Positions 14,553 to 36,819 of a stretch of DNA of 64,000 nt are shown one piece after another. A program made the position numbers and the translations under genes. The stretch comes from an uncultured Pirellulales bacterium (GTDB lineage Bacteria; Planctomycetota; Phycisphaerae; Sedimentisphaerales; SM23-30), in NCBI GenBank assembly GCA_964580995.1, contig CAZOMV010000018.1, positions 55 through 64,054 on the forward strand. The letters run 5' to 3'. Each line of letters begins with the position of its first letter. Positions within the stretch are counted from its first letter, which is position 1. The notes under the pieces were generated by a model. That model was not told the origin of the DNA. It saw only the letters and a program-made list of their open reading frames with translations, and did not search any database.

Positions 14553-14577
14553 CCTTTCCGTATAACCGATTCCCTCA

Positions 14578-14613
14578 GCCGCCGTCCGGTTTTCCGGATG
14601 GCGGCTTTTTTTT
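14578..14613 (+). terminator. intrinsic terminator between convergent genes
   Basis: GCCGCCGTCCGG-TTTT-CCGGATGGCGGC: 12-bp stem with one G.T pair, followed by T8. The T-tract overlaps the stop of the minus-strand gene. Confidence 0.7.
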
Positions 14614-15394
14614 ATGCCTTATCTTGAAGGATATCCTTTAGATAACGAATAATACGTTCCCGATTTACACCCATACTGGAAAATTGCTTTTCGCACACGT
14701 CACTGAATCGAGCTAAAACTTTGCGGTTAATGGATTCTTGATCTTCGAAAATGGCCATGGAGCGTTGCAGGATACTCCATTTTTCGAACTGTAAAAGAGC
14801 AATGGTTGTGTCGCGTACCCGGTCGTCATTGGGTAAGGCATAAACAAATAGCGGGCGTTTCATGCTATTTACCCTGCAATCTACCGTGTACATAGATTGT
14901 GGGTCATGCATGGGATCGTTCCAGTCAAAGGTACGGCGATTTTCTGGGACCGTTTCCATCATCATCGTGCGAAAATCTTCCATGAAAGTGGAATGTACTC
15001 GTTCACGGGTGAGAAAAGAAATATCCGTGATTTTCATCAATGCCTGTATGAAAGAGTATAAGGCATCACCGAACTGGTTTTCGATAACTCGCAAAGACAA
15101 TTCTCCTTCACGGTCTTCTACCCGAAATGTGGATAGCGTATTGGTGATAATTTTTTGGCGTGTGCCTCGTTGCAGATCCTTTTCCTCCAGATCATAGGTC
15201 AAATGCATATAGGTGTGCCCCTCATCGGAGAGCGACCATACTGATTTTTCCCGTTTGAGAACGATTGCCAGGTGGTCACCGTCTTCAAACAGAAACGGGG
15301 TGAACACACGATAACGGTCTATGCCTTCGCCGGTAATTCGGATTTTTTCGCAAACTTTTTTCTTGAAATCACGCTCTATGGTTTCAATGGTCAT
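14612..15394 (-). CDS. DUF1828/DUF1829-like protein (260 aa), function unknown
   Basis: Clean 260-aa ORF in AT-rich DNA. The N-terminal YRVFTPFLFEDGDHLAIVLK region resembles DUF1828 (from memory). ATGA overlap with the upstream gene. Confidence 0.65.
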   Translation of the reverse strand: MTIETIERDFKKKVCEKIRITGEGIDRYRVFTPFLFEDGDHLAIVLKREKSVWSLSDEGHTYMHLTYDLEEKDLQRGTRQKIITNTLSTFRVEDREGELSLRVIENQFGDALYSFIQALMKITDISFLTRERVHSTFMEDFRTMMMETVPENRRTFDWNDPMHDPQSMYTVDCRVNSMKRPLFVYALPNDDRVRDTTIALLQFEKWSILQRSMAIFEDQESINRKVLARFSDVCEKQFSSMGVNRERIIRYLKDILQDKA

Positions 15395-15879
15395 AAATCA
15401 AATTCTCCAAATAACAATTTCTGATTATCTGGGGATACTTTAAATCCGCAATTTTCAAGCAGGTAGGGTAAAGCCGTGTGAAAATCGGCATAACCGTCTG
15501 TTGGTTCGGCAAAAGCGTCTTCACGCAGGCCCATTTCCTGATACCTCTCAGTAGCCTGATGGATGTGAAAGTCATAAAAGGTATTACCTTCAATCTGATT
15601 TGTATGCTCGTGGCTTTTACCATTATACCGTCGTAAGCGAAACAATAGACTCGAATCTGCTGGACAGAAAGCAAGGATAATCGAAAAATCAAGAGTGTTA
15701 ATATCGCTTTGTCTCAGAATAAGGCGAAATTGGCTCCCTTTTTCGCCCGTAACATCCAATTCTCTTTCTTTATGTCCTCGCTTATTACGAAGCTGGACAA
15801 GGGAGCGATAATCAGCAGGCAGGAATTTGCGTTCCGCAATCATCTGGGCAATTTCTTCATCTGAATATTTTGCTGGCAT
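15391..15879 (-). CDS. hypothetical protein (162 aa) with a His-rich core
   Basis: Clean ORF, AT-rich. Core RLRRYNGKSHEHTNQIEGNTFYDFHIHQATERY. No family recognised. Translationally coupled to 14612-15394. Confidence 0.7.
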   Translation of the reverse strand: MPAKYSDEEIAQMIAERKFLPADYRSLVQLRNKRGHKERELDVTGEKGSQFRLILRQSDINTLDFSIILAFCPADSSLLFRLRRYNGKSHEHTNQIEGNTFYDFHIHQATERYQEMGLREDAFAEPTDGYADFHTALPYLLENCGFKVSPDNQKLLFGEFDL

Positions 15880-16187
15880 ATCACATTATAAAAGCATAAT
15901 CCCGGATTAACGTTAAGTAATTCATACGCATAAGGATAAAACCTCTATTATGAAAGGTTTATCAGTTGGTATTATATCGGATTTTGCTAGCGATACATTG
16001 TATTTTTAGCCAACTTTCTGCAAAAAACGTGACTTTTTGATTATTTTGTCGTATTTTTTATGTGTTTCAATAATGTTACTAGTTATAGTATGAAATAATG
16101 CTTAACTGGTCTATTTCACAAGTATTTATAGAAATGATCGGCATTGACATAAAAATATCTTGAATAGGTCAACGACAAGAGGCTGAT

Positions 16188-36744: not shown

Positions 36745-36819
36745 TCGGGGCGACAGGACTTGAACCTGCGACCTCTTGACCCCCAGTCAAGCGCGCTAGC
36801 CAAACTGCGCCACGCCCCG
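36745..36819 (-). tRNA. tRNA-Pro (anticodon GGG)
   Basis: 75-nt cloverleaf drawn by hand. Acceptor CGGGGCG/CGCCCCG, anticodon stem CTTGA/TCAAG with loop CTGGGGG, T-loop TTCAAGT. No encoded CCA. Confidence 0.9.

Follow-up and report, generated by a model that had tools for sequence, protein, structure and literature searches.

The gene pair and its locus

The subject of this analysis is a pair of adjacent minus-strand genes, here called A and B, located in a 64,000-nucleotide stretch of contig CAZOMV010000018.1 from an uncultured Pirellulales bacterium (this whole stretch is hereafter the window). A first-pass annotation, made from the sequence alone, had described two minus-strand genes overlapping by ATGA and had read them as a horizontally acquired toxin-antitoxin (TA) or small defence module. 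Both open reading frames (ORFs) and their overlap were confirmed (Table 1), and comparative genomics lends support to the proposed role. A defence or TA-like function is suggested by the embedding of related pairs in bacteriophage exclusion (BREX) and type III restriction-modification (R-M) operons, by their position after cI-type repressor genes, by the match of B to a PADLOC family, and by the decay of A. Overall, A and B probably constitute a self-contained, horizontally mobile, two-protein anti-phage module of the PDC-M24 family, present here as a solo copy in a housekeeping region.

Table 1. Features of the A-B pair in the window, followed by the gene orders of three related loci
Feature	Position	Strand	Description
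Gene A	15391-15879	-	ORF, 162 aa; putative toxic effector of a DUF6978 / PDC-M24A-related family
Gene B	14612-15394	-	ORF, 260 aa; DUF1828 protein matching PDC-M24B; putative neutraliser or sensor
ATGA stop/start overlap (TGA of A, ATG of B)	15391-15394	-	Indicates translational coupling
Conserved core of A, residues 80-127	15499-15642	-	Putative active site, from the family alignment
DUF1828 domain of B, residues 32-122	15029-15301	-	Pfam; conserved DGD and SDEGHT motifs
C-terminal domain of B, residues 135-260	14615-14992	-	Alternating beta/alpha, conserved acidic residues; no Pfam family
AT-rich leader and divergent intergenic region	15880-16187	-	308 bp, 29.5% GC
Two sigma-70-like sites for the A-B pair	16070-16043 and 16024-15997	-	
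GC-rich hairpin between convergent genes	14577-14606	strand-neutral	
Low-GC segment	14607-16187	strand-neutral	40% GC; likely extent of acquired DNA
Gene order in locus L005	911-10149		BrxC, PDC-S02, A, B, PglX
Gene order in locus L003	4090-12388		BrxC, HEC-01A, HEC-01B, A, B, SIR2-like, PglX
Gene order in locus L004	3965-10291	all one strand	Type III Mod, A, B, type III Res

The pair has a GC content of 0.43 (0.35 in A and 0.47 in B at third codon positions, GC3), as compared to 0.545 for the window, 0.557 for the adjacent hydrolase gene (GC3 0.71) and 0.604 for the S-methyltransferase gene on the other side (GC3 0.77). Regarding the GC contrast initially reported, the low value for the pair stands, but the 67% attributed to the hydrolase gene is reached only in single 60-nt lines (maximum 0.72), the gene itself averaging 0.56. 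The very AT-rich upstream region of approximately 300 bp was also recovered, and no riboswitch or other RNA was found in it. It contains a 16-codon upstream ORF, MRMNYLTLIRDYAFIM, at 15881-15931 (minus strand), preceded at a distance of 10 nt by a Shine-Dalgarno-like AGAGG (15942-15946); its TGA lies one base before the ATG of A, and a TATAAT hexamer is located 5 nt upstream of that ATG. This ORF is not conserved in other loci; it may encode a leader peptide, reflect re-initiation, or have arisen by chance in AT-rich DNA.

The hairpin, which had been assigned to the pair as a strong terminator, is real: RNA folding gave a 12-bp stem with one internal mismatch, -24.4 kcal/mol and z = -4.3, and a sequence scan allowing G-T gave 13 pairs, 10 of them G-C. 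However, its T-run is found on the plus strand only, and on the strand of the pair an A-run precedes the hairpin and there is no U-tail. The T-run identifies it as the canonical terminator of the convergent hydrolase gene; the hairpin thus probably belongs to that host gene and not to the acquired cassette, even though it may also stop the A-B transcript. No notable direct or inverted repeats were seen in the flanks of the low-GC segment, and exact look-up of either neighbour returned no empty site. The sole tRNA gene in the window (36745-36819) lies approximately 20 kb from the pair.

The neighbours are as described in the first-pass annotation. On one side lies a Melibiase/GH36C glycan hydrolase, followed by Mrp/Nuo antiporter-like subunits and a VTT/DedA protein, and on the other side S-methyl_trans, Peripla_BP_2, FecCD and ABC ATPase genes and a PNP_UDP_1 phosphorylase gene; both neighbourhoods of the window copy consist of housekeeping genes, and no phage genes surround it. 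Moreover, the public gene call for A in the source contig (L044/L130, 834-977; Logan assembly) covers only a 47-aa C-terminal piece, and the exact 162-aa protein is missing from a 15-billion-protein collection, whereas B is present there. The A family is probably under-annotated in low-GC inserts.

Conservation, genomic contexts and decay of the pair

Conservation was evaluated in an A-anchored sample of one-genome-per-species contigs, which contained 36 loci with A. The first-pass annotation had suggested asking whether homologues of the two genes co-occur as neighbours: B was found directly 3' of A in 35 of the 36 independent genome loci, the exception (L028) being a fragment of A only, so that the pairing is far beyond chance. 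In addition, at least 555 metagenome loci were confirmed. The commonest spacing is the -4 of the ATGA overlap, seen in 20 of the 54 metagenome loci and in 11 of the 25 genome loci; gaps of 2-3 nt account for most of the remainder. Fusions of A to B were not encountered, as long forms were traced to wrong start codons, a frameshift (L036), or a duplication within B (P0228). There is neither a third conserved gene beside the pair, since the AAA_21, PDC-S02 and HEC-01 neighbours differ by locus, nor a conserved promoter or operator upstream of A, where sequences, including the AT-rich region, differ between loci.

The distribution of the pair is broad and patchy. Loci with A belong to Planctomycetota, Gammaproteobacteria, Lentisphaerae, Phycisphaerae, Bacteroidales, Syntrophaceae/Smithella, Thermodesulfobacteriota, Anaerolineales, Ignavibacteria, Dehalococcoidia, Nitrospirales and Limisphaerales, and to one archaeal metagenome-assembled genome (Methanoregula), and identity across these phyla and the archaeon amounts to 58-75%. 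Cassette GC ranges from 0.30 to 0.60 and is usually slightly under that of its flanks, a pattern that repeated horizontal transfer followed by amelioration would produce. In total, 2463 homologues of A were retrieved (the best 120 of the 2463 are 64-99% identical over the full length), and a profile search gave 1210 clusters at 50% identity, nearly all of them single-domain proteins of approximately 160 aa; for B, 4145 homologues were found, and among the matches listed each carries only PF08861. A search of 72,556 plasmids found A nowhere and B once, as a partial match, and phage carriage was limited to 4 of 50,697 phage records and three IMG/VR loci. The clade of A is large and environmental, and essentially absent from cultured phage and plasmid collections.

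We then analyzed the genes that surround the pair. A scan of two genes on each side in 35 genome loci (121 proteins) returned 13 N6/N4 DNA methylases, 7 PglX, 5 BrxC (DUF6079), 6-7 type III Mod, 5 ResIII helicases and 4 AAA_21 proteins. A wider sample was composed of 115 loci, namely the genomes and 80 metagenome contigs, each counted only where enough flank was available; here 23 of 98 loci have BrxC upstream of the pair and 23 of 95 have PglX downstream, without exception on the strand of the pair and in this order. About a quarter of the 115 loci lie between brxC and pglX of BREX, and type III Mod adjoins the pair in six more, while approximately 70% have no BREX or R-M neighbour within the flanks examined. 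In many of the BREX loci A starts within ~3-10 nt of the brxC stop codon, without a promoter of its own. The brxC-pglX gap acts as a stacking slot, as seen in L003 and L005 (Table 1). A divergent subfamily from Nitrospirales, Limisphaerales and Gammaproteobacteria (L029, L032, L033 and L034) also abuts type III Mod matches; in L032 and L033 the large gene 3' of B looks helicase-like, as judged from its ORF translation only.

Phage genomes provide a second type of context. Three temperate Pseudomonas phages carry a homologous A-B pair with the same 4-nt overlap. In phage 5399, a cI gene (HTH_3 and Peptidase_S24), an 84-aa ORF, A and B follow one another in the same orientation, and in the IMG/VR locus L049 a cI/LexA-like repressor gene is followed by A and then B, with a terminase gene nearby; the position downstream of a repressor is thus found in two unrelated phages. 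This is a classic place for exclusion genes expressed in lysogens, such as rexAB of lambda. Pseudomonas phage PACT201 (L046, 4001-4339) has a weak A-like match, 33% identical over residues 28-137, which is only partly covered by an annotated 79-aa coding sequence and has no B homologue; it is possibly a decayed copy. Regarding other neighbours, a classical TA pair was recognized by Pfam in L042 (ParE/Phd), and ORF translations alone suggested further TA-like genes in L031 (RelE/RHH-like) and in L103 and L122 (HigB/HigA-like). In addition, the close relatives L054, L055, L057 and L063-L066 have, upstream of A, the 3' portion of a gene encoding a protein with the C-terminus ..VEELD.WLKSGG, which looks by eye like an excisionase/HTH_17-type DNA-binding protein.

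The two genes do not decay alike. A second, B-anchored sample comprised 80 metagenome loci, all with full-length B, of which 70 had enough upstream sequence to assess A: it was intact in 54, disrupted by a stop codon, frameshift or truncation in nine, and cleanly absent in seven. Conversely, among the A-anchored genome loci, all 25 with an intact A and an assessable partner have an intact B, and the reverse case was found in no locus. The difference (0/25 vs 16/70) is significant by Fisher's exact test (p = 0.0098). B is longer than A, yet shows no such damage in the A-anchored set. Eight genome loci were classified by script as having a disrupted A beside an intact B, of which L033 is an artefact (divergent N-terminus, full 172-aa ORF). 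Where A is cleanly absent, B can directly follow brxC, as in L076 (71-4783), and L103, L114 and L122 likewise hold an orphan, intact B; by eye only, B follows a HigB-like toxin and a HigA/ImmA-like fusion in these last three. The orphan B may provide immunity against an incoming A, or have an independent function. The simplest reading of the asymmetry is that free A would be harmful and unable to persist without B, with B being harmless or useful alone, which follows the logic of a TA system and suggests A as the harmful effector and B as its neutraliser.

The two proteins and the PDC-M24 family

Neither protein matches a well-known metabolic family in Pfam, PADLOC, NCBIfam or PHROG; a match of that kind is what the first-pass annotation had named as speaking against its proposal. 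Protein A matches PHROG 27326 (E = 1e-22), and its relatives at 64-75% identity score 29.9-33.7 bits against Pfam DUF6978 (PF22398), for which the cut-off is 29.6. The first-pass annotation had singled out a compact His-rich core, and RRYNGKSHEHTNQIEGNTFYDFHIHQATERY is indeed present and represents the most conserved part of the family, but the protein overall has just 6 His (3.7%). Among 130 members of the family with 33-56% identity to A, the signature R84-Y-N-G87 .. H92-x-N94-x-x-E97 .. H105-x-H107-x-A-T-x-R112-Y-Q114 is conserved at 88-100%; invariant or near-invariant are K18, R56, F65-S66, L82, R84-Y-N-G87, H92, N94, E97, H105, H107, A109-T110 and R112-Y-Q114. This pattern, read from the alignment, looks like an active or metal-binding site.

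The AlphaFold2 model of A is confident (predicted local distance difference test, pLDDT, 89; predicted template modelling score, pTM, 0.84). It has a four-stranded antiparallel meander (residues 36-86) and the conserved loop, in which residues 92-93 and 100-101 form a mini-hairpin; after these come a strand (105-108), a short helix (111-115) and helices at the C-terminus. Foldseek found no match for it in PDB, where the best candidate was p32/C1QBP (E = 0.4), or in BFVD, where it was one uncharacterised siphovirus protein; moreover, sequence and profile searches of PDB with A and B gave nothing below E = 0.09. No membrane segment was detected in either protein (maximum 19-residue hydropathy of 1.42 for A and 1.09 for B).

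Several catalytic motifs were considered for A. A His-Me-finger-like arrangement is possible. H92, N94, E97, H105 and H107 are invariant, and in the model a short hairpin precedes a strand and a helix; there was no Pfam HNH match, and Foldseek matched A to no nuclease. The Rx5-6H (HEPN) motif also read by the first-pass annotation was rejected: seven residues separate the invariant R84 from H92, outside the Rx4-6H spacing, H90 varies (KSHEH/KHGEH), and the model is rich in beta structure. Cupin, HIT/GalT and 2H-phosphoesterase readings of the HxH were discarded as well, the topology being neither beta-barrel nor HIT and Foldseek returning no such match, and a PD-(D/E)xK site was dismissed for want of a conserved D..ExK.

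In the case of B, the resemblance to DUF1828/DUF1829 was borne out for the former only: DUF1828 (PF08861) matches at E = 3.2e-26 (91.9 bits against a cut-off of 22, profile positions 1-91 of 91), and DUF1829 (PF08862) gave no match at E <= 1. Furthermore, B matches PHROG 5059 and the PADLOC models for PDC-M24B (PDLC04539, 2.7e-20; PDLC04540, 3.1e-17), and no helix-turn-helix (HTH), ribbon-helix-helix (RHH) or AbrB domain was found in it by Pfam or NCBIfam. Confidence in its AlphaFold2 model is moderate (pLDDT 79.5). Among known folds, that of the type III secretion chaperones is the best match for the DUF1828 domain, according to a Foldseek comparison of the modelled N-terminal domain with InvB (2fm8_A; probability 0.99, E = 0.015, target TM 0.51, 14% identity). 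For the C-terminal domain, matches were weak and mixed, including PD-(D/E)xK/CARF-nuclease proteins and receiver domains (E = 0.03-1.5). Those of nuclease type were VC1899, AF2093, Mus81, EndoMS, Avs4 and T7 endonuclease I (E = 0.03-1.2); the domain has no conserved (D/E)xK motif, and the receiver domains score about equally.

The DGD and SDxGxT motifs, the STFxED helix and the YxVD hairpin of B are kept as far as the phage homologue, and residues after ~200 are not. In one 355-aa homologue (P0228) the inter-domain linker segment (RVRS..EDFR.F...IP..RR.F.WSDP) is tandemly triplicated, which suggests that the linker tolerates changes in length. An annotated DUF1828 protein of Halorubrum virus Humcor1 (MW344765.1, 32598-33230) is 21.5% identical to B (E = 5e-6).

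Judged by sequence comparison, the window pair is a divergent member of PDC-M24, because B matches PDC-M24B, the phage homologue of A matches PDC-M24A, and relatives of A pass the DUF6978 cut-off. In particular, the homologues from Pseudomonas phage 5399 are 34% (A, E = 5e-20) and 26% (B, E = 8e-26) identical to those of the window; the Pseudomonas phage A matches PDC-M24A at 1.2e-8 and its partner matches PDC-M24B, and a distant member of the A family (P0260) has a weak PDC-M24A match (0.012). Genes lying inside BREX, DISARM and type I R-M loci were the source from which the PDC systems were defined (Payne et al. 2024, 10.1101/2024.01.29.577857). In the literature searched, PDC-M24 was not mentioned, mentions of DUF1828 and DUF6978 were incidental, and DUF1829 appeared only in the context of HipAD/DS-6 defence. 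The family is already known as a computational catalogue entry, under PDC-M24, DUF6978 and DUF1828. What is new here are, for this clade, the statistics on the BREX and type III R-M slots, and further the repeated occurrence of the pair behind prophage repressor genes, the asymmetric decay of A and B, and a putative catalytic signature shared by the whole family of A, for which no structural relative was found.

Proposed mechanism, alternatives and known systems

Taken together, the results are compatible with the following model. A would be a small, soluble enzyme that carries an invariant His/Asn/Glu/Arg site, and free A would harm the cell or the invading phage. B, produced in a fixed ratio with A through translational coupling, would hold A inactive by means of its secretion-chaperone-like N-terminal domain. 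Infection, or failure of a first-line BREX or R-M system, would break this restraint and allow A to act, following an abortive-infection or backup-effector logic, and the module may act on its own, as a second line within BREX/R-M loci, or as a prophage exclusion function. A more specific version is offered only tentatively, and we regard it as clearly less likely than the general one: A could be the founding example of an enzyme fold without solved or annotated relatives, either a metal-dependent nuclease or another macromolecule-modifying toxin formed around the invariant RYNG..HxNxxE..HxHxATxRYQ core, and B a new, chaperone-like kind of antitoxin that keeps it unfolded or inactive and releases it upon phage attack or when BREX/R-M is disabled.

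Several observations weigh against the assignment of the window pair to an anti-phage module. Protein A itself has no match in Pfam, PADLOC (E <= 1) or NCBIfam, and since it matches neither PDC-M24A nor DUF6978, PADLOC would not call a system in the window. The PDC set is moreover described by its authors as "145 untested phage defence candidates" (10.1101/2024.01.29.577857), and domain and structure searches recognized no known toxin, nuclease or DNA-binding domain in A or B. The window copy is solo: it lies outside any defence island, among housekeeping genes, and the queries used found no BREX or type III R-M relatives in the window. With respect to the decay, some cases of disrupted A may be assembly errors and could inflate that class, and if only the cleanly absent genes are considered (7/70 vs 0/25) the asymmetry is probably not significant. 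Finally, B is somewhat better conserved than A and its orphan genes stay intact, and it may for these reasons be more than an antitoxin and serve an independent role.

Among the alternatives, the closest is a special case of the defence reading, in which the pair would act as a guard or backup effector specifically for immunity based on methylation (BREX, type III R-M), sensing phage anti-restriction proteins or failure of the host system and killing the cell, in parallel to PrrC within its type I R-M locus. The pair does occur repeatedly in brxC-pglX and mod-res slots, often a few nucleotides (~3-10) from the brxC stop and without a promoter; PrrC has been cited as almost exclusively embedded (10.1101/2024.01.29.577857), and auxiliary or backup effectors within BREX loci have been described (PMC12839542). 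Nevertheless, approximately 70% of loci lack BREX and R-M neighbours within the flanks examined, the window has none, and the phage copies sit by a repressor gene instead, so the pair must be capable of working without a partner system, and we consider an obligatory link of this kind unlikely. To a similar degree, we doubt that the pair is a purely selfish addiction (TA) module that stabilises the DNA carrying it, such as defence islands and prophages, with no anti-phage activity. Such a module would account for the toxin-like decay of A and the retention of B, including the orphan genes, as well as for the translational coupling, the wide horizontal spread and the classical TA pairs found as neighbours. 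However, no domain for DNA binding or autoregulation was recognised in B, which lies downstream of A, plasmids, where addiction modules thrive, are nearly devoid of the pair, and ordered embedding in defence operons together with the post-repressor position are hallmarks used to find defence genes.

It is less probable still that the pair is a prophage moron with another role (envelope superinfection exclusion, lysogeny control or anti-defence), the chromosomal copies being its remnants: the co-oriented position directly after a cI-type repressor gene in two phage lineages and the existence of PHROG families for both proteins would fit, but phage copies are as rare as noted above, the majority of copies belong to host defence operons on the chromosome, membrane segments are absent from A and B, and the window copy has no phage genes around it. 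A housekeeping or regulatory pair outside conflict, for example a small-molecule enzyme and its chaperone, could bind a ligand or metal through the conserved polar clusters of A and B and would suit the metabolic surroundings of the window copy, but this is very improbable given the patchy distribution at 58-75% identity across phyla and an archaeon, the composition atypical for the host, the lack of a conserved metabolic neighbour and the frequent decay of A.

Provided that the pair does function in defence, it is a compact 1.3-kb module common in environmental bacteria, with more than 2400 homologues of A and an effector that has no recognisable fold or chemistry. To a specialist the candidacy for defence will be unsurprising, while the effector is a genuinely uncharacterised protein. 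The analysis turns PDC-M24, so far only a catalogue entry, into testable hypotheses, namely that A is dangerous, that B binds A via a chaperone-like domain, and that the module can act behind BREX/R-M or from a prophage. Surveys probably undercount the family, as this clade is missed by the PADLOC models for A and the gene call for A was reduced to 47 aa. Should the novel-fold version hold, the pair would represent abortive infection of a mechanistically new type, distributed very widely among uncultivated bacteria and archaea.

Of the systems already described, PADLOC PDC-M24 is the nearest: it also has two adjacent, co-oriented genes, B matches PDC-M24B, A is homologous to a phage protein matching PDC-M24A, and relatives of the window pair are embedded in BREX and R-M, as in the definition of the PDC families. 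It differs in that the window A has no PDC-M24A match at E <= 1 and the window copy is solo and not embedded. Regarding the Pfam families, DUF1828 is present at full length in B, and A has no Pfam match, with its relatives at the DUF6978 threshold. HipAD/DS-6 is a validated two-gene, TA-like defence system formed by a HipA-like kinase and a DUF3037-DUF1829 partner (PMC13092281), and there too an uncharacterised DUF protein partners the effector; however, that effector is a kinase and the partner domain is another one, neither DUF1829 nor DUF3037 being detected in B. The A-B pair is not a textbook type II TA either, because B, the putative antitoxin, is downstream of A, larger than A, and without a DNA-binding domain.

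The likeness to rexA-rexB of lambda is one of gene position only, with two co-oriented genes downstream of a cI-type repressor gene in phage 5399 and L049. No kinship with RexA or RexB emerged, although the Rex proteins were not directly compared. RexB is a membrane protein, whereas A and B have no membrane segment. With PrrC/EcoprrI the pair shares its placement inside a restriction or BREX operon, where it keeps to the strand of the operon and often has no promoter of its own, but PrrC is a single ABC-ATPase/anticodon-nuclease protein, while A and B are two proteins without an ATPase that also occur solo. Finally, compared with the type III secretion chaperones of the InvB and CesT class, which the N-terminal domain of B resembles most, B has conserved acidic and His motifs, an additional C-terminal domain and no secretion-system context. 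By analogy, as this fold binds partner proteins in an extended, inactive form, it suggests a way in which B could restrain A.

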